UHGV virus genome: UHGV-1374671
Length of the DNA: 64,000 bases
Origin: a virus
Direction: 5' to 3' (one strand)
Shown here one piece after another: positions 5,213 through 63,797 of this stretch (positions within the stretch are counted from its first letter, which is position 1; each line of letters begins with the position of its first letter). Under the pieces are notes generated by a model. The model made no database searches, was not told the DNA's origin, and was given only the letters and a program-made list of their open reading frames with translations. A program made the position numbers and the translations under genes.

Positions 5213-8200
5213 ATGAAAGCAAGTAGTCTTAAACTCCTGGACAGCACCAGGGAAGTTGTGACAGCGAAGAACGGCGTGATTGACCCGGAGCTGGTCAAGC
5301 CCGCTGTTCTGGGAATGCTGTCTCACGATATTGAAACGGACGCCGCAGCAGAGGACAAGGCCACGACCCCCAAGGCAGTGAACGACTTCATGTCGGACAA
5401 GTTGCTGGGTCTCGCGGCACAGTACCTGACCAAGCAGGAAGTGGCTGACGTCGGCATCTATCCCGAATCTGCGTACGAAGCTACGCAGGCCAAGGATCTG
5501 AATACCGTTACGGATCAGTGCAGCGTGGTGTTTCAGGGAGGAACTGGCTACACGAACGCACCTTTCCCGGAAGGGGAGGAGGCTCCTGCGTTCCTGCTTC
5601 GTGTGTATGCTGCCACCGTGGACGGAACTTCGTACCGGACACAGTATCTTACCGAACTCACTACCGGCAAGACCTGGGTGCGCGGCTACGTCAACCAGGG
5701 CTGGGGAGTGTGGGTTGCCGGAGACGCCTCCGCCGGGGCTCCCCGCATGTCGTTCGACAAGGATGACGTGCAGGTGGAATCCACTGGTAACGACCAGAAC
5801 GCGGCCTTTGTCACAGTGACCTCCGCGTACACTGTGATTGGCGTCCTGGACAACGAAGGCAACCAGTGGTCCTTGCCTAACGGGGCCATTACGACCAACG
5901 GCGCCTACACCAGGATCGACGTGTCCAGCATTCTGGCCAGCAAGAACATCACTCAGGCCGATATGACCGGTATCTGGTATGTGTTGTTTGCAGCCGGCGG
6001 AGAGGGCGAGGTTACACCTCCGGTGGACGAGTCCAGGCTGCTTCCCACCGGTGGCAAGGATGGAGACGTGCTGAGCTACCAGGAAGGCGTTGACCAGGGC
6101 AACGGCGAGGATGTGTTCCTGCTGCTGCAGAACGAGCTCACCGATTCCGCTCATGGTAACGCGTCACCTGTTGCAGTCACGACACAGGGAGTCACATTAA
6201 CTGGTGACAGCAATCTGCAGTTCGACGGCAACGGTTCCTACCTGACTGCAGTTCTCCCAGTGGCCAGCATCTTCGCAGCCGACAAGGAATGGACGATCGA
6301 CGCCTGGATCAAACCTGTGGCCAACTCATCCGGGTGGAACTATATCCTCACCGAGAACAACGGGGACTGGGGCAGTCATAGCATTGGGCTTACCTGGAAC
6401 GCCGACGATCAGACCCTGGAACAGGATACCGGCGGGTATGTGGCTTCTGTGATCAAGGCCTCGAACTGGCCCAACGCTTCAACGCCGTGTGCTGCCAACC
6501 AATGGCACTTCATCGCGGTCGAGAAACAGAAGACGTCCTCGGGGTGGAGCTTGAACTATTACCTGAATGGTTCCCCATGGCTCCAGGTCCCGTTTACGGG
6601 GGACTTTGTGCCGTTCGACTCCAATACACCGTTCTGGTTCGGGGGCAACACCAGCGACGGCGGACGGTACTACAAAGGGGAGGCCAACAAGATCCGTGTT
6701 ACAGCGGGCGCTCGTTATGGTGGCAAAGCATTTGCAGTTCCTGATAGGGAGGCTGCATACGAGCCACCTGCCGGTATGCCTGTATGGACAGCACCGTCCG
6801 GCGGTGACATTGATGAAACCATTGATGCAAAAATTTCCGCACACAATGCAGATTCGTCCGCGCATCCGGGAAAGCTATCTTTAACAGGTGGTCAGATGAC
6901 CGGCGAACTGAAGCTGGGCTCGTCGAATGGTATTCGCTTTAATAATGCAGATGGATATGGTGTCATACTTAGAAAAGATGCAAGTAATTTTTTTATAATG
7001 ATCACCGCCCAAGATGATGAAAACGGTTCTTGGACGGCTTCAAGACCACTTCAGTTAAACTTTGCTACAAGCGAGTGCAATATAAATGGCGGAGCGACTA
7101 AGGATGGTAAGGGTAATGTAATAACAACAACATACGCGCCGCTTTACCATCCGACATTCAGCAGCGGTATCGAAATAACAAGCTCAACTCCGTTCATAGA
7201 CTTTCATTACAACGATTCAGAGTCTGACTACACATTCCGCATTGTGCAGAATACGGCGGATACACTCACGCTTGGTGGAAAGGTTTCGGTGTCCAATACG
7301 TTGTCCGTCACGTCCGGGGGGCTGACAGTAGCTGGTAGTATAACATCGACTGGGGAAATACTGTCCAATACAACCAACTCGTTCCGGCTGATTTACGGCG
7401 ACTATGGTGCATTCTGGAGAAACGACGGTAATGATTTATACTTGATGCTTACGGACGCCGGAAATCAGACCGGTTCATATAATTCTCTCAGGCCGCTCAC
7501 CGTCGACTTTGCCACCGGTGTTTGCGACATATCAGGGTCCGCACTGGAAACAGAAACGAACCTTGCGAACACCGGTATTTATCCCAACGTATCCATGTAT
7601 ACAACGCAAACCAGCGACTTTAATACGTTTCTTACACAGGGCGTGTACTGGTTTCCTAACGGTGCGCATCCGAATGGCCCGTTGGGCGATGACGCCAACT
7701 GTACAGGTGTACTTTGCGTGTACAATGTGCGAAACACGCACTATGTGCAGATATTTTACATGCGCAGCGGAACTAGCGAAGGTAATCACATTATGTACTA
7801 TCGCTGGCGGTATTCCGAAACCTGGACGAATTGGATGACGATATCCGGCAACAACGAGCTTGCAACCGGTACATCCGACTATAATAATGTAACCAGCCCG
7901 GGTTCATATTATTTTTCCTACGGCGACAACACGTCAAACGTGAACGCGCCGGCCAACGGTCCGTTCCATCTTATCGTGCACCGTTACTACAACGCGGCCG
8001 GTACCGTGAACCGTGTTCTTCAAATGGCGATACCGCAAATCGTCAGTACAGGACAGACCGCGACTGTTTACATACGCACCGCATCCTGGGACAATGGCGC
8101 GTATACGTGGCAGCCGTGGACAAAACTTATTACAGAAGACATATTGGAAGCTGTCGGCGTCTATCCGACAAGCAGCGTGGAGCCAAATCTCAATTTCAAT

Positions 8201-8644
8201 ACAGCTTTAACACAGGGTTTCTATTTTGCGAACGGTGCAAATTGCACAAACGGACCGTTTACAGGAGCAAGCAATAATCAAGGCTGGGTTACGGTAAGAG
8301 CAATCCCGGCCGGAAATCATGCCCTGCAATTTTTTTACGGATTTAACACCGATGATTTCTTTGTCCGACGCTACACCAACAACGCGTGGGCATCCTGGAA
8401 ACGGATTACGACGAACGCGGCGTGCACGCCGAAAGTCGGAAGCGCCGTAGACTGCACAAGCGCACTGAAATCATCGGCCGGATACACGTGTCCGTCGAAC
8501 GGGTGGATATATGCGGATGGTATACAGCTCAATATCAACGGCGGCAATTTCTACACCAGCAGACTGTCGATGGTTCCGGTAATGTCCGGTGACGTTGTAA
8601 AATGTTCCGACGCTACGATCGGCGAGTTTTACGTGGCGCGATAA
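5213..8644 (+). CDS. large tail fibre / receptor-binding protein: N-terminal domain shared with ORF 32325, one LamG-like domain, C-terminal lower-GC module with three tandem knob-like domains
   Basis: SD AAGGAG. AFVTVTSAYTVIGVLDNEGNQWSLPNG...IWYVLFAAGGEG is paralogous to a segment of ORF 32325. DESRLLP linker, then LamG signature (EWTIDAWIKP...WHFIAVEK...YYLNGSPW). LSLTGGQMTGEL tail-fibre motif. Three ~110-aa aromatic-rich repeats (e.g. TQGVYWFPNG...WRYSETWTNWMT) resemble pyocin/tail-fibre knob domains. Confidence 0.8.
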   Translation: MKASSLKLLDSTREVVTAKNGVIDPELVKPAVLGMLSHDIETDAAAEDKATTPKAVNDFMSDKLLGLAAQYLTKQEVADVGIYPESAYEATQAKDLNTVTDQCSVVFQGGTGYTNAPFPEGEEAPAFLLRVYAATVDGTSYRTQYLTELTTGKTWVRGYVNQGWGVWVAGDASAGAPRMSFDKDDVQVESTGNDQNAAFVTVTSAYTVIGVLDNEGNQWSLPNGAITTNGAYTRIDVSSILASKNITQADMTGIWYVLFAAGGEGEVTPPVDESRLLPTGGKDGDVLSYQEGVDQGNGEDVFLLLQNELTDSAHGNASPVAVTTQGVTLTGDSNLQFDGNGSYLTAVLPVASIFAADKEWTIDAWIKPVANSSGWNYILTENNGDWGSHSIGLTWNADDQTLEQDTGGYVASVIKASNWPNASTPCAANQWHFIAVEKQKTSSGWSLNYYLNGSPWLQVPFTGDFVPFDSNTPFWFGGNTSDGGRYYKGEANKIRVTAGARYGGKAFAVPDREAAYEPPAGMPVWTAPSGGDIDETIDAKISAHNADSSAHPGKLSLTGGQMTGELKLGSSNGIRFNNADGYGVILRKDASNFFIMITAQDDENGSWTASRPLQLNFATSECNINGGATKDGKGNVITTTYAPLYHPTFSSGIEITSSTPFIDFHYNDSESDYTFRIVQNTADTLTLGGKVSVSNTLSVTSGGLTVAGSITSTGEILSNTTNSFRLIYGDYGAFWRNDGNDLYLMLTDAGNQTGSYNSLRPLTVDFATGVCDISGSALETETNLANTGIYPNVSMYTTQTSDFNTFLTQGVYWFPNGAHPNGPLGDDANCTGVLCVYNVRNTHYVQIFYMRSGTSEGNHIMYYRWRYSETWTNWMTISGNNELATGTSDYNNVTSPGSYYFSYGDNTSNVNAPANGPFHLIVHRYYNAAGTVNRVLQMAIPQIVSTGQTATVYIRTASWDNGAYTWQPWTKLITEDILEAVGVYPTSSVEPNLNFNTALTQGFYFANGANCTNGPFTGASNNQGWVTVRAIPAGNHALQFFYGFNTDDFFVRRYTNNAWASWKRITTNAACTPKVGSAVDCTSALKSSAGYTCPSNGWIYADGIQLNINGGNFYTSRLSMVPVMSGDVVKCSDATIGEFYVAR

Positions 8645-21267: not shown

Positions 21268-21852
21268 ATGACCAAAGACGAATTCCGGGAGTTCATTCTT
21301 CAAGAAAGCGGTATCATCCAGTCCGACCCCACTGGCTTCAGTGTGTGTCACAGCTGTGGAGCCACAGGGGACTCCTTTGAGGAATCTGTCCGGCACCTGC
21401 CAAGCTGCAAGCTGATGCAGGCCCTCCAGATGATCACGCACGACATGCCGGACACTTTTATACTCGGAGTAGAAAATCAACTGACTGTGACCACGCTGCT
21501 GGACTTCATCCAGGCATTGGAACCGGAGGATGTCGCGTTCATAGATCAGCTCACCAGCAAAGTGCTGGAGGCGAAGGACGTCGAGACGCGGGAGTCGTAC
21601 TGGAGACCGCTGATTGGCTGGGCACCCAGCGCGAACCCGTCGCTGGTGCTGGCCATTGTACGGAAGGGCCTGAAGAACGATACGCAGCGCATCAGCTTCC
21701 GTAATTACATGATCTTCGAGAAGGCCACCAGCCAGTCGCTGGAGACGATACAGAAGCAGCTGCAGGACGTGCTGGACACCAGGGAAAAGGCCGGGAAGGT
21801 GTTTGACAATCTGTTCCGTAAGAAATATAATGTGCCTCTGGATGGCGCATAA
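21268..21852 (+). CDS. hypothetical protein
   Basis: The track start at 21226 lies inside the inverted repeat. The ATG at 21268 has AAGG 10 nt upstream. No domain recognised. Confidence 0.5.
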   Translation: MTKDEFREFILQESGIIQSDPTGFSVCHSCGATGDSFEESVRHLPSCKLMQALQMITHDMPDTFILGVENQLTVTTLLDFIQALEPEDVAFIDQLTSKVLEAKDVETRESYWRPLIGWAPSANPSLVLAIVRKGLKNDTQRISFRNYMIFEKATSQSLETIQKQLQDVLDTREKAGKVFDNLFRKKYNVPLDGA

Positions 21853-32230: not shown

Positions 32231-32253
32231 ATTATACTCCAAGTATAAAATCG

Positions 32254-40776: not shown

Positions 40777-42122
40777 ACGCAATCGGTAAAATCTCAGCGG
40801 CAGTGACTGCCGCTGCAGCCGCCACGGTAGGTACTGTCCTGTATGTCAACGACGATACCACCAACACGGCAGTCGACCAAGAAGTCAACACCAGGAACGC
40901 CATTGTTGAGGTTTGGGAGCCGCAGCTGGTTGATCTCGGCATCGTTGATATTGAAGCCAGTCTGGTGGATGTGACGGAAGGGCAGATCACGACGTACCAG
41001 CCTCCGGCGCTTACGGATCTCAATAGCTACACGCCAACTGTGCTGAAAAGCGGTGAAGGAGACGTGCTGGACATTGCAGTTGTGAGAGTGTCCGGCGACG
41101 TACTGGACCTGTCCAGAAATGCGGAAGCCGTGCGCAAGGTGGCCAATATGTTCATGGATACGCGCAACGCCACGTTTGATCCCACCATGATGAACGACGC
41201 ACACATTCTTGAAGCCTGGTACGAGGTCTACCATCAGGAAGCGCAGCCAATCAACAAGATCGCGCTTCCCAATGATATCCGGATGGTGGCGGAAGTGAGG
41301 GTACCCGACAATGGGGAACAGTATGCGACGCTGGTGGAGAACCTGGAGCACTACAAGGATCTCGGATACAACTCGGTGCTGCTGGTGTTCCATACCCAGG
41401 AATCCCTGGACTCGTTGAAGAGTACCATCAAGCTGATCAGAGATCATGACATGGGTGTCTGGTTCGCATTTGCAGGGGCCACTTCCAAAGTGGATGGCAT
41501 GACGTACCTGGAAGATACCAAGTCCGTGTTCCCGCATCCGGAGCTGCTGAAGAAGTACCTGGTGGATCTGGCGCCGCTGTGCGACGGTTTCATCGGCATG
41601 TGGAAGCGCACCAGCGCTCACTTCTTCGTACAGGATCAGCCTTATATGGACTACCTGGCACGGTGTGTCAGGGAAGGGAACCCGAACATCCCGGTGCTGG
41701 GTGAGATCTACTTCGGCCCCACTGCGGACGTCCCGGAAGTGGACGGCATCAAGAAGCTGAACTCCGGCACCAACCAGTTCAATTATCTGATTCCCCGCAA
41801 GGCCAACAATGCGTCAGGATACCTGGTCGTGAATCTCGGGTATTCCAACGTGAATGTGAAGGGTGTGTTGAATGGCCTTCTGTCAGGACAGAAAGAGGAT
41901 GATAAGTTGGTGCTGATCTCAGGACCGAACCCGGTGTTCATTTCCACCGGCAGGCCCGTGCTTACTTACAAGCAGCTCCGCAGCGTATACACAGGGCTTG
42001 AGCAGCGTTGGCTGACCGCTGGAGCCAGAGGAGTTGTCCTGTTGCACGGTGAGATGTCGGATGGCAGTGCTACGGATAAGATCAGCAACAATTTGTCTGT
42101 TTCCAAATATTTTAACAAGTAA
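40773..42122 (+). CDS. N-terminally membrane-anchored protein with TIM-barrel glycoside-hydrolase-like core (tentative)
   Basis: N-terminal TM ISAAVTAAAAATVGTVLYV. Alternating hydrophobic beta-strand / helix pattern (YNSVLLVFHTQE, MGVWFAFAG, FIGMWKRT, VLGEIYFGP). Confidence 0.4.
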   Translation: MNAIGKISAAVTAAAAATVGTVLYVNDDTTNTAVDQEVNTRNAIVEVWEPQLVDLGIVDIEASLVDVTEGQITTYQPPALTDLNSYTPTVLKSGEGDVLDIAVVRVSGDVLDLSRNAEAVRKVANMFMDTRNATFDPTMMNDAHILEAWYEVYHQEAQPINKIALPNDIRMVAEVRVPDNGEQYATLVENLEHYKDLGYNSVLLVFHTQESLDSLKSTIKLIRDHDMGVWFAFAGATSKVDGMTYLEDTKSVFPHPELLKKYLVDLAPLCDGFIGMWKRTSAHFFVQDQPYMDYLARCVREGNPNIPVLGEIYFGPTADVPEVDGIKKLNSGTNQFNYLIPRKANNASGYLVVNLGYSNVNVKGVLNGLLSGQKEDDKLVLISGPNPVFISTGRPVLTYKQLRSVYTGLEQRWLTAGARGVVLLHGEMSDGSATDKISNNLSVSKYFNK

Positions 42123-42142
42123 CCCAATAAAGGAGATCTACA

Positions 42143-42922
42143 ATGAAGAAATTGTTGATTGGGCTGTGTGCCCTGTGTGCTCTGGCAGTGAGTGCAGCTG
42201 AGAATCCGATGAACACCGTACGGACGACCAAGAACGTGGAAGAGCTTCCTGCCGTTCTGCAGGCTGCCTCTGCTGAGATTACGCTTCAGTCGCCTGAGAA
42301 CCGTCGCGTTGATCTGTGTGTTGCCTACGGGCTCGCTTACCTGCGCAGCACAGATGTCCCGACCTTCGACGCCTACATCAAGGTCGTACAGGACAAGGCG
42401 ATCGAGCTGAAGTGCTGGGATGCCTGCAAGATCACGGGTAACGTGTTTGAAGTGCTGCGCCCTTGGTGGATCGGCGAAAAGTTTACCAAAGCGCTTACGG
42501 ATCCGGCCATTGAATGGATTGCCGCCAACCCGCACGTGAATCTGTACAGCAAAGCTGCTATCCTGAGTTACGATCACGAGGACTATGCACAGGCAGTCAG
42601 CTGGTGGGAGAAACGCAAGGGCGGCTCGGCGTATGCGATTATTGCGTACGCCAAGCTGGGGCAGCTCGATGCCGGCATCGACTATTTCTACTCCAAGCTG
42701 GGTACGAAAGAGTGGTCTCCCGAGTCCGGTGTAAACGCCTTTAAGAAGGCCTGGGAACTGGTGCTGGAAAAGAGCAAGTCGGACCCGGCGGTGCTGGACA
42801 AATACAAGAAGCTCAACGCCACGTACGCCAGCATGTACACCAACTACCTGTATGACGCATCAGATCCTGCGAAGTCCCCGTGGCGGCCGCTGGTTACCCT
42901 GCTGACCGCCCAGTCCAAGTAA
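42143..42922 (+). CDS. secreted helical-repeat protein (paralogue A)
   Basis: SD AAGGAG. Signal peptide MKKLLIGLCALCALAVSAAE. C-terminus ...SPWRPLVTLLTAQSK. Confidence 0.55.
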   Translation: MKKLLIGLCALCALAVSAAENPMNTVRTTKNVEELPAVLQAASAEITLQSPENRRVDLCVAYGLAYLRSTDVPTFDAYIKVVQDKAIELKCWDACKITGNVFEVLRPWWIGEKFTKALTDPAIEWIAANPHVNLYSKAAILSYDHEDYAQAVSWWEKRKGGSAYAIIAYAKLGQLDAGIDYFYSKLGTKEWSPESGVNAFKKAWELVLEKSKSDPAVLDKYKKLNATYASMYTNYLYDASDPAKSPWRPLVTLLTAQSK

Positions 42923-45168: not shown

Positions 45169-48100
45169 ATGGATGATATCAACGTGACGCCTGTTTTGGC
45201 GGACAGCTCCACAGTGGAGAACATTCAGGTTCGCCCGCAGCGTCCTCCCAAAACGGCAGCTGACTGGGTGCGCGACATGCGCATGTCTCCTGAAGTGAAC
45301 AAGACCACTGTCGGTGTGGAGACGGACCGGATAACTCCTGAGTTGCTGATGGCCACGTCGTCCAAGCTGCTTGGTATCTCCAGACGGGAGCAGGATCCGG
45401 ATCCCAAGGATTCCCTGCTCTTCCAGCGCTTCTACGGGCCGGCCGAATACTTTGCAGAACACATTCTGCGGGACGGCAACAAGGTGGCCCGTAACCTGCT
45501 GTGGAAAGCAACCAACAAGGGCAAGATTGACTTCGTACCGTCAGGAGCATTGGATCAGCACGTCAGCGATGTGTTCTACAGCAGCAAGCTGGCCCAGATG
45601 ATCGACGGGTCGTCTCCTTTGGAAACGGTGGACGCTTCCTTCAAGACCACCCGTATCGGCGAGGGCGGCGTCGCAGATGTGCAGTCGGCTCCTGATGAGA
45701 TGCGTACAGTGCAGCCTTCCTACTTCGGATACCTAGACTCCGTGCGCTGCTATTCGGACGATACCGAACTCATGACCAAAAATGGCTGGAAATTCGTTAC
45801 CGATATTACGGAAGACGATGAGCTTGCATGTTATATGGACGGCAGGTTGGAGTACCACAAACCAACCGCATTGAATGTATACGACTACAAGGGCAAGATG
45901 TACGGATACAAAGGTACGCATATCTCGTACCTGGTGACACCGAATCACCGGATGCATTCCAGATGTTATGGAGAACTCAGAGATGGGCGTCCTTGTGGTT
46001 ATAACATTCGTACAGCTGAGAGCATTCACGGTAAGAACAGGGTTGTAGATTCTGCCTGCCATTTGCCGTTACTGTGCAATGAGGATCAGAAATACTTTGA
46101 GCTCCCTGTGGTAGGTCCTAATCTGAAGAAAGAGCAGGTTCATGGCAATCCGCCAATGGGCGCCAGCTTGAAGAACGTGGACAAAGTGGACATCGTGAAG
46201 TTTGCCGAGTTCCTCGGATGGTACCTGGCTGAGGGTTCCTATGTGATCAATGAAACCAAAGGATACTACCGCGTTGATATTGCACAGTCCCCGGAAGTCA
46301 GTGCGGAAAACTACGAGCATATCAGACAGCTGATAGAATCTCTTCCCTTCAACGCAACCAATCCAGGTGCCGAGGAAAAAGCAAAAAGGGGCGGGCATGC
46401 CTTGTCCATCGCCAGAAAACAGCTGACCATATACGTCAGTCAGTTTGGAAAGTGCGAAGACAAGTACATACCTGAGTGGATTTTCTCAGCTCCGTTACAG
46501 GCCCGCAAAGCGTTTTGTTGGGCCCTTCTGCAAGGAGATGGACGGGAACAGAGACATCTCTGCACAAAGTCAAAGCGACTGGCTACTGACTTTGCCCGCC
46601 TGCTTTTTGAATTGGGTGAATCTGCCAAAGTATACCACGAAAAAGAAACCAGATATGAAAACCATCCTGGTATCTGGAATGTTTACTGGCACACCCGCAA
46701 AGAACGTCTTTTGGCTGGAAAAACACATAAGCACAAGGAAGGTGAATATTTCACTGAAGACTATACCGGCAAAGTGTACTGCCCGACCATACCTGGCGGT
46801 CTGGTGTACTGCCGCAGAGGCGAAAAGAGCGTTGGTTTCTGGTGCGGTAATAGTCCGGAGAGGTTACGCGTCGGATTGGATATGTATATGACCAAGAATG
46901 TGGTCAAGGGATCCGATGGAAAGCTGTACCAGAGATTCATCAACGCGCGTACCGGCAAGGAGGAGCTGGTTGACTCCGTAACAGCTTCCAGATCCATTGT
47001 GGCAGCGCCTGAGATGATGGACGCCGATACCAAGTCCATCTTCGCTCTTGGTGGTCGTACTGGCGTACGTATCGTACCCAAGGATAAGGTTGATTATTAT
47101 TTACCCAGAGCCGACGATGCGTACAGCATGTCGTCCAATATGGTGCCCATGTTCAATGGTGTGAAGGAAATGCGCCTGCTGATGGGATGCCTGCATCCGG
47201 GTACTCCGTTGATCACCATATCGGCGAAGAACGAGATCAACATCAAGCCGGCGAAATCCATTGGCAAGAATGCTTATGGAGTGCCTGGCTGCGATGCCAA
47301 AGGCAAGTCGCTGGGGTATCTGATCCGTAACAGCATTGCCAAGTTTCCCCAGAAGCGCAAGTGGTTCAAGAAGGTCGTGCTGATGTCGGGGCGGTCCCTG
47401 ATCACCAGCTACGATCACAGATGGCCAGTGCTGCGGGACGACAAGCTGGAGCTGGTGAACGCATCCGATCTTCAGCCCGGGGACAAGGTGCTCAGATCCA
47501 CGTTCAAGGATCTGCCCAATCGACGCACCTTTTTGCGCGGCGTACTGGTGAACAAGGATGTTGCCACGCTGCTGGGCTGCATCGTAAGGTCGGTCACCAA
47601 ACCTGACCCGGACAAGCTCCGGGTGGTGTACCAGCCTTCTCAGAAGAAGTTCATCGAGGCAGCCATCGAACGGCTCAAACTGGAGAACTCCCGCTTCTAC
47701 GCCAATGCCGGCGAGAAGTGCCTTGCCATTCATGACAGCAACTTCATCCAGTGGGTGGAGAAGGAGATCTGTCTGGAGCCGGAAGAGCGCAAGGTCCCCA
47801 CTGTGATTCTCAGTGCGTGCCTGGACATTGCGTCTCACTTCATCGACGCTTACACGGCCGACACCACCAAGGTCGGCATCGACAGCAACGAGGACATGTG
47901 GATCCTGGATATCCCCAGCATGATCTGCCGTGACGGTCTTGCGTTGCTGCTTGCCAGAATGCAGACGGATACCCTGTACCGGGATGCTGTGCGGGCAGAC
48001 GGAGTCAATCTGGCGTTGAAGCTGGTGGAACAGACCCCCACCTTCGGGGATTCCATTGTGGACGAGGTGAAAATTATACTCGAAGTAGAAAAGGTCCCGC

Positions 48101-51100
48101 TCATGATTGACATCGATATCGATGACAACATGTATGCGACCGCCAATGGAATCATCACACACAACTCCAAGTACCCGTTGCAGGCCATCTCCCTGCTGGA
48201 GCGGGAAGCTCCTTTGGTGAGAGGGCTGGATGAGGCGTCCGGCAGGGACATCCCGTCGTTGGCAGGCAAGTATCTCGGCGCCAGATTCGCCAACCAGGGC
48301 GGCACCGTCACCGCTGTGCGCAAGGACCGCATCGACGTCGTCTACGACGACGGCACCAAGGGCAGCGTTTCCCTGTACCAGAATTTCCCGATGAACGCCA
48401 AGGGGTACATCACCAACACGCCTGTGGTGAAAGCGGGACAGTCCTTCAAGAAGGGAGATGTATTAGCGGCGTCGAACTATACAGACGACAAAGGCGTGGC
48501 GGCCATCGGCAAGAATCTGAGATCCGGCTGGCTGTCCTGGAAGGGCGGCACCTATGAAGACGCTGTTGTAATCTCCGAATCAGCCGCCAAGAAGTTGACC
48601 AGCCGTACCATGTACAAATCGGCAGTCGACCTCGACAAGACAGTCAGTTTGGGAAAGAAGAACTACGTCTCCTGGAAGCCGTCCGAGTACACCAAGGACC
48701 AGCTGTCGGCGCTGGATGACAACGGAATCATTAAGCCGGGTTCCGTGCTTCGCAAAGGAGACCCGATGATTCTGGCGGTGCAGACATCCGAACCCTCTCC
48801 CGGGACGCTTGGCAAGCGCGTGCTGACGGATATCTCCGAGACCTGGGAACACGACCATCCGGGTGTGGTCACTGACGTGGTCAAGACCAGGAAGGGTGTG
48901 AAGGTGTTTGCCATTGTGGAAGCACCTGCGGAAGTGGGGGACAAGGTAAGCGGGAACTTCGGCAACAAGGGAGTAGTCTCGCAGCTTGGTAGAGAGTCCC
49001 AGGAAGAACAGGACGACGAGAACCAGGACTTCCAGATCCAGAAGATCGTACCGGACGCCATGATGCCCATTGGAGAGGACGGCAAGCCTCTGGATCTGCT
49101 GTTCAGTCCTCTTGGGCTTATCTCCCGTACGAACGCTTCCCAGATCCACGAGGCTCTTCTGGGCAAGATCGCCCGTAAGACTGGAAAACCGTTCGTCATG
49201 CCGGCCTTCTACAAGGGCGACCTTACGGAGTTCGTGGAGAACCAGCTGAAACAGAACAAGGTCAGCGACACGGAAGACCTGACGGATCCTTATACCGGCA
49301 GGAAGATCCCCAAAGTGCTGACCGGTGTGTCGTACATCTACAAGCTCAAGCACCAGGCCGAGTCCAAGCTGTCCGCACGCGGTACTGCCGAGTACACTGC
49401 CGAGGGCACGCCGGGTGGTTCTGGACTCACTGGGAGCAAAAGGTACGGAACTTTGGAGCAGTCCGCGATGGTCGGCCACGGTGCGTTTGACAACCTGCTT
49501 GATGCGAAACTCCTGCGTGGCCAGTCGAACTCGGATTTCTGGCGCAGCATCCGTACTGGAGAGATCCCGACGATTCCTGGAGAGCCCCTGGTGCACAAGA
49601 AGTTCTTCGCCCACCTTACAGGCTCCGGTGTGAACGTGCGCAAAACCCCGAAGGGCATCAGCGTGTTCTCGTTGTCCAACGACGATGTGAAAGAACTTGC
49701 CGGCCCCCGTGAGCTGAAATCCAAGGACACCTACGAAGCCAAGACATTCCGTCCCATCGATGGAGGACTCTTTGGTCAGGACCTGTTCGGCCCCAATGGA
49801 GACCGCTGGGCATACATCCAGCTGGACGAACCTCTGCCGAACCCTGTAATGGAGGAGCCTCTGGCGCGTCTTCTCAGAATGTCCACCAAGGACTTCATGG
49901 CAGTGGCCGCCGGCAAGGCTGAAGTGAATGGAATGAAATCCTCCGCCGACATCAAGGAACGCCTGTCCAGGATCAACTTGAAGGCCGAGGAACAGCAGGC
50001 CAAGCAGGAGTTCAAGGACGCCCCGATGTCTAAGAAGGACGCGGCGCTGAAGCGTTATCGGGACATCGCCCGCATGGCTGCGAATGAAGTGTCCCCTGAC
50101 CAGTACATGCTGGATAGGATTCCGGTGCTGCCTCCTGTCTTCCGTCCTGTCAGTACGCACAACGGACTGACCATGGTGGCCGACAGCAACTACCTGTATG
50201 CGCAGATGCTGGACGCCAGAGACGACGCCCGGGAAGCCCGCAACCTGCCCAAGGAATACCAGCAGCAGGCCAGGGAAAACCTGTACCGAAGCTGGAAGGA
50301 GCTGACCGGCATGTACGAGCCCGAGAACGTGAAGCTGAAGAACAAGCACGTGCGGGGGCTTCTGAAGTGGGCGCTTGGTGACAGTCCAAAATGGTCCGCG
50401 TTTCAGAGAAAGGTATTGGGCTCCACGGTGGACACGGTAGGCCGTGGTGTTATCACTCCGGATCCGCGCCTGAAGCTGAACCAGCTCGGCGTTCCTCTGC
50501 CGATGGCGTTGGGCATCTATGAGCCGTTCGTTGCTCGATCCATGGTCAAGCAGGGGTACTCTCCTGTGGAAGCCATGAAGATGATCAAGGTCCAGGACAA
50601 GCGCGTGATACCAGTGCTGCTTAACGTGATGAAGAACAGCCCTGTGCAGCTGAATCGGGCACCTTCGCTCCACAAGCTGAACATCATGGGATTCGAGCCT
50701 GTGCTCACTGCCGGGCACGCTGTCCGGGTAAACCCGTCCATTGTGGTGCCCTTTGCGGCGGACTTCGACGGCAACTGCTGCGATTTTGATAGTGTAATTT
50801 TCCTAAAATTATCAAAATCTGCGCTTGAAAAAACTGCTTTTATGTGCTATGTTGATCATAGTAACAAACCCGAACAAAACAAGGAGGTTTCTATGATCAC
50901 GGAAGACACAAGAGTCGTGGTGTTCAACCCGGATGAGACTGACCCGGATACTGTGTACTGCTCTATGAAGATCGGGGAGTTCCCGCGTAAGGGGGTGCCG
51001 GTGAAAGACCGGAACGGTGCTTTGGTGTACCCGGTTCCAGAAGGGGTAAGCGTACTGTCCTGCGACCCAGTTACAGGTGCTCCGAAGTTCTGCCCTGTGT

Positions 51101-52542
51101 CGGCTGTAACAGTGGAGGAGAACTGCCATACGGTAGAGTTGACTCTCGGCAGCAGAAAGATCATCGTGTCGGATAACGAATCCCTGGCCGCGTTCGACAG
51201 CAAGGCAGGTACGTTGATCAAAGTGTCCCCGGCAGAGATCGGAGATCGGATGATTCCTGTTCTGAAAAAGCAGCAGCTGCCATATGGCCCGTTCGGCACC
51301 AGGGACCTCGGCTGGATGTTCGGTGCGTTCATCTCCGATGGCTGGGTCACGCACAATATGGTGGGATACGCCAAAGTGGAAGCCAACAAGCGTGCTGAGT
51401 TCGTCAGGATCATGCGTGCGTATCACGAGAACTTTACTTGCAACGAATACACTGATCGTCCGCAGGCTGGAAAGAACAAGTTGGGCGCCTCCGTTAAGTT
51501 GCACCTGTGCAGCAAATCCCTGGCAGACTGGATGCGCAACTGGCAGCTCATAAACGAGGACTGTCCTGCGGCAGAGCGTGCTGCGCTGCGGAAGCAGATA
51601 AACAGCAAGATGATTCAGTACGGCTCCGAGGACTTCCTGTGGGGGCTGTTCTCCGGTCTCCTGGACGGTGACGGGTCCATCAGCAAAAACACGACGATGG
51701 AGAAGCCGCGCTTTACAGCCAGATTCAGCACCTCCAGCAAACAGCTGGCGGACGACATCTGCGCACTGTGTTATCGACTGGGTCTGCGTTACTCCATGAC
51801 CGTGGTACCTCCCAGAGGATTCTCCAATACGGCATACATCATCATCCCGTCCACTATTGACTTGCATGCCAAGCTGGACAAGCTCACCTGTATTGGTGAG
51901 CGGGAGATTCAGCTTATCTCGGAATGGAAGCAGCAGCCGTCGTACAAAGACACCAAAGACATGATCCCGCTGTCTGTTAAAGAAGCGGAAGTGCTGATTA
52001 AGCTGGCGAACGCCAGGAAAGACGTAGGAGTGTCCTCCGGGATCTACAAGACTAGAAAGAAGTCCTGTATCTACGGTGGTCGTGTTGGGCTGATGCGTTA
52101 CTGCGAGGAAATCAAGGAGATGTTCCCTGAGTTATACGCCCGTATTAAAAACGAGGACACCATTTGGCAGACTGTCACTTCCGTGGAGGACGCCGGCAAT
52201 CGCCAGGTGTTCGACTTGATGGTTGAGGGTACGAAAGTGTTTGCCATCAACAACGGCGTGATTATCTGGGACACCGCCAACGTGCACGTACCGGTATCCG
52301 ACAACGCCAGACGGGAGACCTATGAGAAGATGTTCCCGGAACGCAATCTGATCTCCATGCGTGAGCGCAAGGTGCTGTACAAGCCCGAAAAGGAGTACAT
52401 GCAGGGGATCTACGTGGCGACCCGCATGAAGAAGGGCAAGGATGTCCGACCGAAGATCTTCGGATCTGTGGAAGAAGCGCGTCAAGCGTTACGCAAGGGC
52501 ATTATTGATATTGATGATCCTATTGAAATACGCAAGCAATAA
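45169..52542 (+). CDS. bacterial-type RNA polymerase: beta C-terminal half fused in frame to beta' N-terminal half, interrupted by two inteins
   Basis: Aligns by eye to E. coli beta: TRIGEGGVADVQS...PSYFGY vs RISALGPGGL...PTHYGR; GDKVSGNFGNKGVVSQ vs GDKMAGRHGNKGVISK; PLGLISRTNASQI vs PLGVPSRMNIGQI. Then directly to beta': TFRPIDGGLFGQDLFGP vs TFKPERDGLFCARIFGP; PVLPPVFRP; PVLLNRAPSLHKLNIMGFEP; FAADFDGN...TANVHVP vs NADFDGDQMAVHVP. Confidence 0.85.
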   Translation: MDDINVTPVLADSSTVENIQVRPQRPPKTAADWVRDMRMSPEVNKTTVGVETDRITPELLMATSSKLLGISRREQDPDPKDSLLFQRFYGPAEYFAEHILRDGNKVARNLLWKATNKGKIDFVPSGALDQHVSDVFYSSKLAQMIDGSSPLETVDASFKTTRIGEGGVADVQSAPDEMRTVQPSYFGYLDSVRCYSDDTELMTKNGWKFVTDITEDDELACYMDGRLEYHKPTALNVYDYKGKMYGYKGTHISYLVTPNHRMHSRCYGELRDGRPCGYNIRTAESIHGKNRVVDSACHLPLLCNEDQKYFELPVVGPNLKKEQVHGNPPMGASLKNVDKVDIVKFAEFLGWYLAEGSYVINETKGYYRVDIAQSPEVSAENYEHIRQLIESLPFNATNPGAEEKAKRGGHALSIARKQLTIYVSQFGKCEDKYIPEWIFSAPLQARKAFCWALLQGDGREQRHLCTKSKRLATDFARLLFELGESAKVYHEKETRYENHPGIWNVYWHTRKERLLAGKTHKHKEGEYFTEDYTGKVYCPTIPGGLVYCRRGEKSVGFWCGNSPERLRVGLDMYMTKNVVKGSDGKLYQRFINARTGKEELVDSVTASRSIVAAPEMMDADTKSIFALGGRTGVRIVPKDKVDYYLPRADDAYSMSSNMVPMFNGVKEMRLLMGCLHPGTPLITISAKNEINIKPAKSIGKNAYGVPGCDAKGKSLGYLIRNSIAKFPQKRKWFKKVVLMSGRSLITSYDHRWPVLRDDKLELVNASDLQPGDKVLRSTFKDLPNRRTFLRGVLVNKDVATLLGCIVRSVTKPDPDKLRVVYQPSQKKFIEAAIERLKLENSRFYANAGEKCLAIHDSNFIQWVEKEICLEPEERKVPTVILSACLDIASHFIDAYTADTTKVGIDSNEDMWILDIPSMICRDGLALLLARMQTDTLYRDAVRADGVNLALKLVEQTPTFGDSIVDEVKIILEVEKVPLMIDIDIDDNMYATANGIITHNSKYPLQAISLLEREAPLVRGLDEASGRDIPSLAGKYLGARFANQGGTVTAVRKDRIDVVYDDGTKGSVSLYQNFPMNAKGYITNTPVVKAGQSFKKGDVLAASNYTDDKGVAAIGKNLRSGWLSWKGGTYEDAVVISESAAKKLTSRTMYKSAVDLDKTVSLGKKNYVSWKPSEYTKDQLSALDDNGIIKPGSVLRKGDPMILAVQTSEPSPGTLGKRVLTDISETWEHDHPGVVTDVVKTRKGVKVFAIVEAPAEVGDKVSGNFGNKGVVSQLGRESQEEQDDENQDFQIQKIVPDAMMPIGEDGKPLDLLFSPLGLISRTNASQIHEALLGKIARKTGKPFVMPAFYKGDLTEFVENQLKQNKVSDTEDLTDPYTGRKIPKVLTGVSYIYKLKHQAESKLSARGTAEYTAEGTPGGSGLTGSKRYGTLEQSAMVGHGAFDNLLDAKLLRGQSNSDFWRSIRTGEIPTIPGEPLVHKKFFAHLTGSGVNVRKTPKGISVFSLSNDDVKELAGPRELKSKDTYEAKTFRPIDGGLFGQDLFGPNGDRWAYIQLDEPLPNPVMEEPLARLLRMSTKDFMAVAAGKAEVNGMKSSADIKERLSRINLKAEEQQAKQEFKDAPMSKKDAALKRYRDIARMAANEVSPDQYMLDRIPVLPPVFRPVSTHNGLTMVADSNYLYAQMLDARDDAREARNLPKEYQQQARENLYRSWKELTGMYEPENVKLKNKHVRGLLKWALGDSPKWSAFQRKVLGSTVDTVGRGVITPDPRLKLNQLGVPLPMALGIYEPFVARSMVKQGYSPVEAMKMIKVQDKRVIPVLLNVMKNSPVQLNRAPSLHKLNIMGFEPVLTAGHAVRVNPSIVVPFAADFDGNCCDFDSVIFLKLSKSALEKTAFMCYVDHSNKPEQNKEVSMITEDTRVVVFNPDETDPDTVYCSMKIGEFPRKGVPVKDRNGALVYPVPEGVSVLSCDPVTGAPKFCPVSAVTVEENCHTVELTLGSRKIIVSDNESLAAFDSKAGTLIKVSPAEIGDRMIPVLKKQQLPYGPFGTRDLGWMFGAFISDGWVTHNMVGYAKVEANKRAEFVRIMRAYHENFTCNEYTDRPQAGKNKLGASVKLHLCSKSLADWMRNWQLINEDCPAAERAALRKQINSKMIQYGSEDFLWGLFSGLLDGDGSISKNTTMEKPRFTARFSTSSKQLADDICALCYRLGLRYSMTVVPPRGFSNTAYIIIPSTIDLHAKLDKLTCIGEREIQLISEWKQQPSYKDTKDMIPLSVKEAEVLIKLANARKDVGVSSGIYKTRKKSCIYGGRVGLMRYCEEIKEMFPELYARIKNEDTIWQTVTSVEDAGNRQVFDLMVEGTKVFAINNGVIIWDTANVHVPVSDNARRETYEKMFPERNLISMRERKVLYKPEKEYMQGIYVATRMKKGKDVRPKIFGSVEEARQALRKGIIDIDDPIEIRKQ
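45748..48165 (+). mobile_element. intein 1 (806 aa) with LAGLIDADG homing endonuclease, in the beta segment
   Basis: Begins with Cys (CYSDDTELMTKNGWKFV), block B VTPNHRM, LAGLIDADG motifs LGWYLAEGSY and ALLQGDG, ends ...GIITHN followed by Ser. Confidence 0.7.
50776..52272 (+). mobile_element. intein 2 (499 aa) with LAGLIDADG endonuclease, inserted inside the NADFDGD catalytic loop of beta'; atypical C-terminus ...IIWD
   Basis: Starts CCDFDSVIF right after DFDGN. LAGLIDADG motifs MFGAFISDGW and LFSGLLDGDGSI. C-terminal block VFDLMVEGTKVFAINNGVIIWD followed by T(ANVHVP); the canonical ending would be VVHN. Confidence 0.6.
50780..50895 (+). promoter_or_regulatory. AT-rich island inside intein 2 with TTGAAA-N17-TATGTT, SD AAGGAGG and an in-frame ATG
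   Basis: tgtaattttcctaaaattatcaaaatctgcgcTTGAAAaaactgcttttatgtgcTATGTTgatcatagtaac...AAGGAGGtttctATG at 50893, same frame as the host ORF. Local GC is far below the surrounding ~58%. Confidence 0.45.
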
Positions 52543-52762: not shown

Positions 52763-53746
52763 ATGAGTGAGAAATACAGACATCTCTACGGACTGGGTAA
52801 AGCGGCTGTGGCTGTACTTACTCCGGAAGCAGAGCAAGCGGCTGTTCAGCCTCCGATGGACCCTGCCATGGCTGGCGGCGCTCCTCCGATGGATCCGATG
52901 GCGGCCGGAGGAATGCCTCCGCAGGGCGGCGCTGGAGCTCCTCCGATGGGTGGCGCTCCGATGCCGCCGCCGGCAGGCGGACAGATCCCGCCGGAAATCC
53001 TCCAGGACCAGATGTTCATCCAGTTTCTGCAGGAGGCGCTGGGGGTGTCCCTTGATCCGGCGTCGGGCATGTTCATGGGCCCGAATGGCGAACAGATCCC
53101 GCCCCAGCTTATCATTGAGGCCTACCAGGAGTTCCAGACGATGCAGGCCCAGGGCGGCATGCCGCCTGCAGGAGCTGGGGCTCCGCCTGCGGCAGGCATG
53201 GATCCGGCTATGGCAGCAGGTGGTGCTCCGATGCCGGCAGGAGCCCCGCCGATGGATCCCATGGCTGCGGGAATGCCTCCGGAAGCGGCTGGTGGAGTTC
53301 CTCCGGAAATGGGAGGAACCCCTGAAGAAGTGCCTCCGGAAATGGGCGCTGCACCTGAAGCAGGTGCTCCTGCGCCGGCTGCTGGACCGGAAGCGATGAT
53401 GCAGGAACTGCTGTCTGGAGTAGAGGCCGTGCTGCAGTCCTTCTCCGGAAAGCTGGACAAGCAGCTCAGTGCCATCCAGGACAAGATCGAGGCTCTGAAG
53501 ATGGATGTCGAATCACTGCGGGACACCACGGACCAGCGCACCAAGATGGAAGAGGACGAGGCTGCCCGTATCCGGGAAGAGCTGGAAGCAGAGCTTGTGC
53601 CCACCGCCGTTGCCCAGAAGGAGGCCAGCATTTCCATTCCGGCTCCGCAGCCGATCAAGATGCCGACCGTTGAGAACAAGCCGAGCACCAGGAAGCGTAC
53701 CGGCACTCCGAACCTGTTCTCCGTGATCCAGGGAGGAAAACGATGA
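52763..53746 (+). CDS. Pro/Ala/Met/Gly-rich low-complexity protein with RHLYGLxK N-terminus and coiled-coil C-terminus
   Basis: SD AAGGAG. MSEKYRHLYGLGKAAV. Repeats GGAPPMDPMAAGGMPP. Confidence 0.5.
   Translation: MSEKYRHLYGLGKAAVAVLTPEAEQAAVQPPMDPAMAGGAPPMDPMAAGGMPPQGGAGAPPMGGAPMPPPAGGQIPPEILQDQMFIQFLQEALGVSLDPASGMFMGPNGEQIPPQLIIEAYQEFQTMQAQGGMPPAGAGAPPAAGMDPAMAAGGAPMPAGAPPMDPMAAGMPPEAAGGVPPEMGGTPEEVPPEMGAAPEAGAPAPAAGPEAMMQELLSGVEAVLQSFSGKLDKQLSAIQDKIEALKMDVESLRDTTDQRTKMEEDEAARIREELEAELVPTAVAQKEASISIPAPQPIKMPTVENKPSTRKRTGTPNLFSVIQGGKR
52850..53350 (+). repeat. low-complexity Pro/Ala/Met-coding repeats
   Basis: Seen in the translation. Confidence 0.5.
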
Positions 53747-61916: not shown

Positions 61917-63797
61917 ATGAAGAAACACTTTCTTCCTGAGAGCTTCGATTTTGGGATGCCGTCCGTTGAGCTGATCGGAGTCGGTACCAAAGGACTGGAC
62001 AAGACTGCCATGGTGAAGCGGGCCAGCGCGTTCGACGATGTGATCGGGGATCTGAAAAAGAAACCCAATCGCGAGTACCTGCATGTGATCACCACCGGCG
62101 CGTTTGAGAAGTACGGCGCCAACGCCAACTGTTTCATTGGTGAAACCCCTGTCCTGACCACACTGACTGGGAAACGCAAAAAGATCAAGGACATCAAAGA
62201 GGGCGATCTGGTGCTGACCGGCAAAGGTCGTTTGCGTCCTGTTACCAAGGTCTATGTCAGGAAGTATGCCGGAGAGATCATTGAGGTATGGGGTACGGAA
62301 TGGAAAAGCAAAGTATCCATGACAGCAGAGCACCCGGTGCAGGTGGTCAACCCCGGTAACCGGGAAACGCTGGACGGCAAGTTCGTGAAAGCGTGTACGC
62401 TTACGATCAATGACGAACTGGTGGTGCCGGCCATGGACCATGTTAAGAGCGGTAATAAGGAGTTTCACGACAAAGTCGCTCTTGTCAGATCTCGAAATGC
62501 CAAATGTTCCACGGTGTTCAATCTTGAGGTGGAGGAAGACCACACGTACTGCATTCCGTTCGTGGTGCACAACTGCGACGGCTGGAATGGTGAGTCGTTT
62601 GATCTGGAATTCCCGCATCCAGAAGACCAGAAAAAGAAAAAGATCACGTTGGACGGCGGGTTGTCCAAGTACCATGACGATACCTACATGAAGAACGGTG
62701 CCGTGTACCAGGAACACAAGACCAAGCGTGCCGGCGTCGATCCCAGCGGGGAAGTCGTAGCTGCACGGTACAACCCGATCATGAAGCGCGGTGAGTTAAT
62801 TATCAGCGTGGACACTGGCAAATGGGCTTCCCGCCTGCAGAAGAAAGCGCAGGGCAAGGATATCTATCTCAGCATCGGGGCCGACGTGCCGCATGACATT
62901 TGTAACATCTGTGGACGCATCGCCAAGACCGCAAGCCAGCACTGCGATCACTTCAAGAAGCACCGTGGCCAGGTGTACGACTCCGGTGTGCGTGCCTGTG
63001 TGATGAACGACTCCCCGAGTTTCTACGACATCAGCGGAGTCGACGTTCCGGCTGATCAAATCGCTTTTGTTCTCAGCAAGGTGGCCAGCGGCTCTACGGC
63101 CAAGGAGGCCGCGCTGGAAGTGCTGAGCGTCTGCACTCCCCGTCGCCCGATGCTGTACACCAAAGCGGCTGCCATTTTGGACAAGCTCTCCAAGATGGAG
63201 AAACAGCTGGTCGGCATGGTGGAGGGAGACAAACAGGAGCCCGCTTTCCATGACGATGACGAAGTCGCCAAAGATTTTATACTCAAAGTAGAAAACTTCC
63301 CCAGCGACGAAATCATCGACAGCTGTAATCGGAAAGGCATCCTGTTGTCCCCCGGCATGCTGTTCAAGATCATGGGCAAGGACTGCACGGAGGACTCCGA
63401 CAAGGAGATGCTGTGCGGACTGGATGACGACTGCTGCGGGGATTGCTCCACGATGTTCGAGGACATGGAAGAGGATGAGTGCTGCAACGAGGAACTGCTG
63501 GACGGCAGCTTTGACGAGCACCTCCCGGCTGACCTGTCGTTGGACGCCATCCTTGAGAAGTTCGTACCGGAGTTCGGTGTCACCCAGCCGGCTATGCAAG
63601 GCAAGATCATCACCGTCACCATCACCGGGCGCAAGGGGAAAGAGCCCAAGCAGGAGTCCAAAGAGGCTTCTCTTAATAAGCAGGCACAGGAAGCTCTCCG
63701 GCGCACGTATGCCAGGTACGTCATCAGTTTCGCCGAACGAAATGACGACGCAACCTGTTACAATGCGCTGAGAAAAATAGCAGTTTACGGCAAATAA
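61917..63797 (+). CDS. Cys-rich hypothetical protein interrupted by a mini-intein
   Basis: SD GGGGAA. Extein junction ...TTGAFEKYGANAN / CDGWNGESFDL. CNICGR...HCDHF and CCGDC clusters. Confidence 0.6.
   Translation: MKKHFLPESFDFGMPSVELIGVGTKGLDKTAMVKRASAFDDVIGDLKKKPNREYLHVITTGAFEKYGANANCFIGETPVLTTLTGKRKKIKDIKEGDLVLTGKGRLRPVTKVYVRKYAGEIIEVWGTEWKSKVSMTAEHPVQVVNPGNRETLDGKFVKACTLTINDELVVPAMDHVKSGNKEFHDKVALVRSRNAKCSTVFNLEVEEDHTYCIPFVVHNCDGWNGESFDLEFPHPEDQKKKKITLDGGLSKYHDDTYMKNGAVYQEHKTKRAGVDPSGEVVAARYNPIMKRGELIISVDTGKWASRLQKKAQGKDIYLSIGADVPHDICNICGRIAKTASQHCDHFKKHRGQVYDSGVRACVMNDSPSFYDISGVDVPADQIAFVLSKVASGSTAKEAALEVLSVCTPRRPMLYTKAAAILDKLSKMEKQLVGMVEGDKQEPAFHDDDEVAKDFILKVENFPSDEIIDSCNRKGILLSPGMLFKIMGKDCTEDSDKEMLCGLDDDCCGDCSTMFEDMEEDECCNEELLDGSFDEHLPADLSLDAILEKFVPEFGVTQPAMQGKIITVTITGRKGKEPKQESKEASLNKQAQEALRRTYARYVISFAERNDDATCYNALRKIAVYGK
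62130..62573 (+). mobile_element. mini-intein (148 aa)
   Basis: CFIGETPVLT, block B TAEHPVQVV, ends YCIPFVVHN followed by Cys. Confidence 0.7.

Follow-up and report, generated by a model that had tools for sequence, protein, structure and literature searches.

An AT-rich island inside an RNA polymerase intein as a probable expression cassette for a viral homing endonuclease

Inteins are usually thought to express their endonuclease solely as part of the host protein. Here, we describe an AT-rich island of about 115 nucleotides (nt) at positions 50780-50895 of a 64,000-nt stretch of the virus genome UHGV-1374671 (the whole stretch is referred to as the window), which lies in the coding sequence of an intein of a viral RNA polymerase gene and carries the signals of a gene start. 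The closest known systems are found in phage T4, where a hairpin hides the initiation region of I-TevI, I-TevII, I-TevIII, segB and mobE on read-through transcripts (PMC2988022). As in the T4 intron endonucleases, the endonuclease gene of the window is nested in an essential phage gene, has a putative promoter of its own within the host transcription unit followed by a Shine-Dalgarno sequence (SD; the T4 consensus SD lies about 8 nt before the AUG, PMC2988022), and may be associated with a hairpin, here a predicted one, that cannot form on transcripts from the internal promoter. The two systems differ in that the carrier is an intein and not an intron or a free-standing gene, in that the cassette must stay an open frame that codes for a part of the intein, and in that the promoter looks host-type rather than phage late-type.

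AceL-TerL and VidaL belong to the atypically split inteins, whose N-terminal fragments are very short and which form another group with similarities to the window intein. In the atypically split PolB16 OarG the N-terminal fragment comprises 15 amino acids (aa) (PMC10189870). Atypically split inteins come from phage or metagenomic genes, are broken just past the first HINT strand or strands (PMC10189870) and have a separate translation start for the C-terminal part just past the first strand, all of which resembles the arrangement described here; however, the window intein is contiguous, its promoter, SD and ATG lie within an open frame, and its large fragment keeps a full LAGLIDADG endonuclease, which is missing from the known split inteins. 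In 'fractured genes' of phages and metagenomes, split intein halves are separated by a free-standing endonuclease gene, all three being expressed as units of their own, and the break-up of an endonuclease-containing intein has been proposed as their origin (PMC2677866). In the window the endonuclease is still fused to the C-terminal intein part, and in most members of the family nothing is broken; the arrangement may thus represent an earlier stage of the same process. The nearest cases of an endonuclease translated inside an insert from its own start and a putative SD are the cyanobacterial dnaX intein and the ShiLan insertion, but these endonucleases use another reading frame and no promoter has been described for them, whereas here precursor and internal product would share a single frame, that of the host protein. 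PI-SceI, PI-PfuI and TliVMA share the HINT and LAGLIDADG fold at a sequence identity of only 10-13%, and the window family departs from the PI-SceI type by Glu at B:10, Lys at F:13, Trp/Tyr-Asp instead of His-Asn at the C-terminus, and Asn at position -1. We found no description of an intein with an internal promoter in the literature searched.

The insert in question is a LAGLIDADG intein in the DFDGD catalytic loop of a fused polymerase, and we consider it probable that the island is a working expression cassette inside the coding sequence of this intein; most of the insert can probably also be made as a separate protein. As protein, the island would provide strand 1 and a disordered loop of a 2457-aa precursor that is read straight through, with cis splicing possible. 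As DNA and RNA, it would provide a host-type promoter that has an extended -10 element and is preceded by an AT-rich tract, a short A-rich leader, a strong SD and an in-frame AUG. Transcripts started internally would be translated from Met1909 into a 549-aa protein consisting of the intein without strand 1, the endonuclease and the C-extein, while on read-through mRNA a hairpin would pair the AUG region with a segment missing from the internal transcript, following the logic of I-TevI. The most likely role of such a product is independent, probably early, production of the putative homing endonuclease. It may also act as the C-terminal half in trans-splicing, a role suggested by the position of the internal start at the split point of atypically split inteins and by the existence of two split relatives. 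As to its origin, the cassette may descend from a free-standing endonuclease gene that was captured or from a split intein whose halves fused again. The features of the locus are, by position in the window:

45169..52542, + strand: host gene, an open reading frame (ORF) of 2457 aa for a fused RNA polymerase beta/beta'-N with three intein-like inserts, identified by Pfam

50761..50775, + strand: end of the N-extein, DFDGN, part of the catalytic NADFDGD loop, with Asn for the third Asp of intein-less alleles

50776..52272, + strand: intein of the third insert, 499 aa from Cys1870 to Asp2368, in which a LAGLIDADG homing endonuclease is nested within a HINT domain; position +1 is Thr2369

50776..50811, + strand: intein block A or beta-strand 1, CCDFDSVIFLKL, in AT-rich codons; a strand in the AlphaFold2 (AF2) fold with a predicted local distance difference test score (pLDDT) of 69-83; kept in subfamily A

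50782..50819, + strand: conserved inverted repeat GATTTTGATA-N18-TATCAAAATC, perfect over 10 bp, just upstream of the -35 element

50825..50853, + strand: promoter of the sigma-70/sigma-A type by sequence and conservation, with -35 TTGAAA at 50825-50830, a 17-nt spacer and an extended -10 TGcTATGTT at 50845-50853

50833..50937, + strand: predicted disordered loop between strands 1 and 2 (aa 1889-1923; model residues 35-69, AF2 pLDDT 30-48), containing the -10, leader, SD, ATG and a block-A-like ITEDTRVVVF

50853..50899, + strand: AUG-masking hairpin by predicted folding, 9-bp stem 50853-50861/50891-50899 with the SD in the loop

50881..50887, + strand: SD motif AAGGAGG, 5 nt before the ATG, conserved in homologues

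50893..52542, + strand: internal ORF of 549 aa, comprising Met1909, intein residues 41-499 (HINT minus strand 1, LAGLIDADG endonuclease) and 89 aa of C-extein

51307..51678, + strand: two LAGLIDADG motifs, LGWMFGAFISDGW and LWGLFSGLLDGDGS, with the acidic catalytic residues kept

The decisive evidence that the island is more than a product of chance is comparative. We assembled 23 distinct junction sequences of same-site inteins from protein searches and contig scans, and found the cassette at the same codons in homologous inteins that are merely 30-50% identical. In 12 subfamily members, with an intein identity of about 45-55%, the -35 and -10 elements stand at a fixed offset (64 nt past the D codon) with a spacer of always 17 nt, and several match the sigma-70/sigma-A consensus better than the window promoter:

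L036: TTGACA/TGcTATAAT, 12 of 12 positions

L002: TTGACA/TGcTATAGT, 11 of 12

L003, L083 and L084: TTGACA/TATATT, 11 of 12

L040, L037 and L085: 10 of 12

The hexamers are written in the codons of [LIV]-[DE]-x and Y-x. The residue following the conserved Tyr may be V, S, N, I, G or C, yet its codon always ends in T, which is the invariant last base of the -10 element. From the protein pattern L-[DE]-x6-Y alone a promoter was predicted for P0002, P0003, P0005 and P0006, and was then found in newly fetched DNA. Of the 23 junctions, 17 have an SD with an in-frame ATG at the corresponding position, among them members of a distant subfamily with unalignable linkers (L007, L009, L012, L017 and L042); in one junction (L001) the SD-ATG is out of frame. 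The frame is open in 22 of the 23 junctions, compared with 4% of shuffles of the 39 codons of the window island, and therefore the cis precursor appears to be selected as well. Identical amino acids are encoded by the same codon at a rate of 0.67-0.70 in the island and about 0.35 elsewhere, and the GC content at third codon positions (GC3) is 0.20 in the island and about 0.7 elsewhere. Compared with its nearest relative, L035, the window is 93% identical at the DNA level in the island and 83% in the rest of the intein, and none of the eight differences in the island touches a hexamer, the SD, the ATG or a stem arm. In this 91%-identical relative the contig begins precisely with codon 1 of the intein, a pattern to be expected if alleles with and without the intein occur side by side in the sample and break the assembly.

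The segment is thus formally a conserved linker in homologues, an outcome that the initial annotation of this DNA had set down as speaking against its own reading; however, it is the DNA signals and not the peptide that are conserved, and the functional reading is therefore strengthened. The same annotation regarded the island as the footprint of a captured gene, a term that does not fit a cassette kept by purifying selection across inteins of 30-50% identity, which has to be seen as a working part rather than a relic. Its further suggestion of an internally initiated product composed of endonuclease, Hint-C and C-extein is indicated by the conserved promoter, SD and ATG, by the synonymous-site constraint, and by the TAG-free internal ORF of recoded relatives.

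Four relatives (L002, L036, L083 and L133) read TAG as a sense codon, while the window itself uses the standard code. TAG accounts for 2-6% of the codons in their polymerase and its other inteins. In-frame TAG codons are distributed as follows:

L002: upstream polymerase 20/500, island before the ATG 2/41, ATG to intein end 0/452

L036: upstream polymerase 28/500, island before the ATG 2/42, ATG to intein end 0/461

L083: upstream polymerase 11/500, island before the ATG 0/42, ATG to intein end 0/461

L133: upstream polymerase 11/499, island before the ATG 1, ATG to intein end 0/510

At the 4% rate of the gene, about 18 TAG codons would be expected in the internal ORF of L002, where none was observed, and TAG codons resume 14-22 codons past the intein end in the recoded relatives. 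A TAG-free ORF in TAG-bearing surroundings is therefore best understood as an internal ORF kept readable in the standard code, and points to its separate translation under that code, at a stage when TAG is still read as a stop. A switch of code via suppressor tRNAs has been proposed for phages during infection of standard-code hosts (PMC10879173). Since the standard-code product would end shortly past the intein and cannot rebuild the polymerase, a stand-alone endonuclease role is favoured. Mobility of the intein was considered as a cause of the lack of TAG and rejected, because the three other inteins of the L002 gene, one with a LAGLIDADG-like domain, are TAG-rich (6/159, 14/327 and 19/373) and because the island before the ATG has TAG codons. 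The polymerase gene of L002 (L002:1-7421) has four inteins, one of which (L002 3385-4503) is missing from the window, and its TAG positions align mostly with Glu or Gln of the window protein.

In the window, the GC content of 50780-50895 is 0.328, as the initial annotation had it, compared with 0.546 for the whole ORF (and not about 58%, as had been given there) and 0.542 for the rest of the intein. It is the lowest-GC stretch of 116 nt in the 64 kb: only 10 of 63,884 windows of this size are equally AT-rich, about 4 standard deviations under the mean, and all 10 overlap the island. TTGAAA-N17-TATGTT, AAGGAGG-N5-ATG and both DFD triplets are present as initially annotated, with the -10 hexamer at 50848-50853, a preceding TG at 50845-46, and the DFD triplets written gac-ttc-gac at 50761-50769 and gat-ttt-gat at 50782-50790. 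The ATG (50893-50895) is in frame with the ORF 45169..52542 as codon 1909, or codon 40 of the intein. Among 399 internal in-frame ATGs of the window genes, only 3 are preceded by a 6-mer SD and 10 by a 5-mer SD, and the AAGGAGG of the island is stronger than the SD of most true gene starts in the window. Database proteins begin exactly at the position of the internal ATG (P0001, 91% identical). No island-like copies forming a repeat family were found elsewhere in the window, and the other AT-rich dips, at 6896-7088 and 42045-42191, are unrelated to the island.

The 5' arm of the hairpin stem spans the predicted transcription start, which would lie at about 50859-50861, some 7 nt past the -10 element. 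The predicted folding free energy is -13.3 (z -2.6) for RNA beginning at the -10 element and -2.6 for RNA beginning at the predicted start. As the 5' arm would be missing from internally started transcripts, the AUG is predicted to be masked on read-through mRNA only. The same hairpin geometry is predicted from different sequences in L002 (ATAGTAAAC/GTTTACTAT), L040 (TAACGGT/GCCGTTA), L035 and L083. The inverted repeat upstream of the -35 element is paired in 93.8% of cells across 13 homologues, with compensatory synonymous changes (GAT/AAA to GAC/AAG) in two of the pairs; 14 of 500 shuffles attained its covariation score. The repeat could be an operator, or else a hairpin in the RNA of read-through transcripts.

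For the full intein, AF2 gives a model with a pLDDT of 83, whose best Foldseek matches are the inteins TliVMA, PI-PfuI and PI-SceI (E 5e-20 to 1e-11). CCDFDSVIFLKLS forms strand 1, followed by a short helix. Most of the cassette falls into the loop that is predicted to be disordered, and the protein can therefore presumably afford it. As modelled, the internal product is similar to the larger of the two parts of an atypically split intein (PMC10189870). The block-A-like ITEDTRVVVF just past the ATG, similar motifs of which occur in relatives, was considered as a replacement for strand 1 but is not supported, with a pLDDT of 34 and no strand for residues 1-11 in a model built from a shallow alignment. 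A true frameshift split with overlapping ORFs occurs at the same point in L001, on a 180-kb contig, and in L132, which carries a sister intein with Ser1 between exteins that differ very little from those of the window lineage. Inteins of this sister lineage (L132:1081-1290, L133:2933-3115) share the insertion site, start with Ser1 after an Asp at -1 (DFDGD|S[IV][LW]N...), and are equipped with a promoter-like site, an SD and an ATG of their own; the intein is in frame in L133 and split by the frameshift in L132.

Several observations weigh against a working cassette. The window hexamers are mediocre, with a score of 9/12, and L035, the nearest relative, is without the extended TG; sites of this score are not in excess in 12 kb of sequence (5, with 6.0 expected from shuffles). 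Use of the promoter by the host RNA polymerase is an assumption. The AUG-masking hairpin is weak or absent in L003, L085, L004 and L037. In the AF2 model of the internal product the first ~26 residues are unstructured, and the free product may fold poorly. The strongest argument, that from TAG codons, comes from relatives and not from the standard-code window. ATA replaces ATG in L043, and four more distant same-site inteins (L006, L018, L022 and L048) have no cassette, from which it follows that the cassette is not essential to the intein.

The same data allow other explanations. The internal start might chiefly make a C-terminal half for trans-splicing with block-A N-terminal fragments, the fused frame being incidental or the result of a recent re-fusion. 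The frameshift splits of L001 and of L132, a close relative of the window phage, would fit this, and so would a start about 40 residues into the intein, which is the natural atypical split position (PMC10189870), and a modelled internal product that lacks strands 1-2 like a C-terminal intein fragment (Int-C). The excess of open frames among the junctions over the 4% expected by chance is, however, difficult to reconcile with an incidental fusion, and the TAG-free ORF, read in the standard code, stops 14-22 residues into the C-extein, too early to rebuild a polymerase, so that we regard this explanation as unlikely. More doubtful still is that the island is primarily an embedded promoter for genes downstream of the polymerase, which would favour retention of the intein and make the SD-ATG secondary. 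In T4, promoters do occur inside seg and mob genes (PMC2988022), and no other AT-rich, promoter-like site in the 64-kb block of same-strand genes is as strong as the island; but such a function, which would be compatible with an internal expression cassette rather than exclusive of it, leaves unexplained why 17 of 23 junctions, some of them with no recognisable promoter, retain an in-frame SD-ATG, and why TAG is avoided in the internal ORF only.

We see very little chance that the island is an inert relic, i.e. the leftover 5' region of a once free-standing endonuclease gene that was fused in frame, together with a co-converted flank and without present function. It does look like a complete gene start with a composition foreign to the surrounding ORF, yet the rest of the intein has a host-like GC content while the island stays AT-rich and better conserved, and its elements are in register across deep divergence, with compensatory changes. 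The initial annotation took the second DFD for donor flanking sequence that was co-converted; this DFD represents positions 3-5 of block A (C-x-D-F-D-S) in the whole subfamily and its DNA, GATTTTGATA, is one arm of the conserved inverted repeat with TATCAAAATC, while more distant members have no DFD, and it is therefore not a duplicated piece of extein. Conservation purely at the protein level, with promoter, SD and ATG as by-products of the codons for a linker or helix, seems scarcely tenable: C-x-DFDS, LK[IL]SKS and L-[DE]-x6-Y are indeed conserved, and AF2 predicts a short helix at KSALEKTA, but third codon positions are constrained where amino acids vary (GC3 0.20), the loop is predicted to be disordered, and the linker with the SD cannot be aligned as protein although GGAG-N5-9-ATG is kept.

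The host gene is part of a phage-like window of tightly packed, same-strand genes with 55% GC. Pfam detects Rpb2_6 (E 5e-43) and Rpb1_2 (E 8e-19) in the polymerase ORF, which is interrupted by intein-like inserts at aa 194-560, 674-998 and 1870-2368; the matches of these inserts to Intein_splicing and LAGLIDADG_3 are weak. The island belongs to the third of them and not, as first annotated, to 'intein 2', and instead of following the first block of the intein it encodes block A (CCDFDSVIFL) and the following loop. The frame is uninterrupted from 45169 to 52542, the N- and C-terminal intein parts are not in separate ORFs, and the endonuclease domain shares the host reading frame, unlike the out-of-frame endonuclease of the dnaX type. 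Both LAGLIDADG motifs are intact, with D149, D258 and D260 invariant among homologues, and the intein nucleophiles Cys1870 (position 1) and Thr2369 (+1) are common to all Cys-type members. The protein reads ...PFAADFDGN / CCDFDSVIFLKLSKSALEKTAFMCYVDHSNKPEQNKEVS-M-ITEDTRVVVF...NNGVIIWD / TANVHVP across the junctions. A comparison with intein-less alleles, proposed in the initial annotation, yielded P0009 (locus L131), which is continuous (AADFDGD-TANVHVP) with flanking DNA 93-96% identical to the window; the intein-less site contains GACTTCGACGGCGATACAGCCAACGTG. An intron or a known RNA element as carrier was excluded, because a scan of 50000-52000 against Rfam at E <= 1 matched no family and the carrier is an in-frame intein. 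A megablast of the region against GenBank phages for close relatives gave no match, tblastn gave distant beta' matches only and no annotated phage with the third-insert intein, no tRNA was found by a tRNA scan of the window, and a search for the host among bacterial and archaeal genomes returned binned metagenomic contigs only.

The two other inserts of the polymerase, at 45748-46851 (CYSDDTEL...FWCGN|S) and 47188-48162 (CLHPGTPL...ITHN|S), give weak Pfam matches and are without an internal start cassette. A different intein is inserted one residue downstream of the third-insert site (DFDGDQ|C...) in L016 and P0034, and L015 may hold an insert past DFDGDAMSV. Several independent inteins appear to share the catalytic loop as an insertion hotspot.

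The splice junctions of the third insert pose a separate problem. All Cys1 alleles have Asn at -1 (window 50773-50775) and end in [WY]-Asp (Trp-Asp in the window, 52267-52272), whereas about 96 intein-less homologues all have DFDGD and none has Asn, which was seen only when the intein Cys follows; the Ser/Thr1 sister lineage (P0033, L132 and L133) keeps Asp at -1. Canonical boundaries would therefore splice to DFDGN-T and not to the DFDGD of all intein-less homologues. Thr-x-x-His of block B (~51160-51180) is not present, being replaced by an invariant S-x-N-E-S with Glu for His at B:10, and the family also has Lys in place of His at F:13 and Trp/Tyr where the penultimate His would be, so that all three canonical histidines are missing. 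Asp is a known rare substitute for the C-terminal Asn of inteins (PMC4031507). Either the DFDGN enzyme works, or the Asn is converted to Asp, or the splicing chemistry is non-canonical. A search of the window for another RNA polymerase catalytic loop, able to make up for DFDGN, found none, and the Asp/Asn junction codons gave no signal for an ancestral codon in comparison with the intein-less allele.

We tentatively put forward, as a speculative and rather improbable joint reading, that the lineage is both a living intermediate between contiguous and atypically split inteins and a new mechanistic class of intein. As an intermediate, promoter, SD and AUG would arise first in an open loop and a later frameshift would complete the split, as in L001 and L132. 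As a new class, without the three canonical histidines and with a terminal Asp, splicing would have to convert Asn(-1) to Asp, e.g., by way of a succinimide in the backbone and then an acyl shift on the side-chain carbonyl. If this were true, polymerase activity would depend chemically on splicing, since Asn replaces the third Mg-binding Asp. The Asn/Asp junction in the polymerase active site could, if resolved, bring to light a switch of a viral RNA polymerase that depends on splicing, or a splicing chemistry that is new.

Some other parts of the window deserve mention. The second-lowest GC dip (0.33), at 6896-7088, lies inside a 1143-aa ORF (5213..8644), shows no obvious promoter/SD pattern and may be a mosaic segment of a tail-fibre-like gene. 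A partly palindromic 19-mer, TTATACTCNAAGTAGAAAA, is found at four places on the + strand (21458-21476, 32232-32250, 48074-48092 and 63277-63295), compared with an expectation of 0.02. One of the copies precedes ORF 32325 in an intergenic region and another falls on a local GC dip within the second polymerase intein; the sequence may serve as a regulatory site or as a promoter specific to the phage. The ORF that follows the polymerase gene (52763-53746) reaches 75% GC and has internal repeats rich in Pro, Met, Ala and Gly (D15, D20) with a spacing of about 360 nt.

An internal expression cassette would extend to inteins the 'gene within a gene' control that is known for phage intron endonucleases, with one stretch of about 115 nt under four constraints: reading frame, promoter, leader and RNA structure. 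It would also offer a concrete route to atypically split inteins, which are valued tools in protein engineering. In recoded phages, the internal ORF would be a standard-code gene nested in a recoded gene, which supports the view that recoding acts as a divider between early and late translation.

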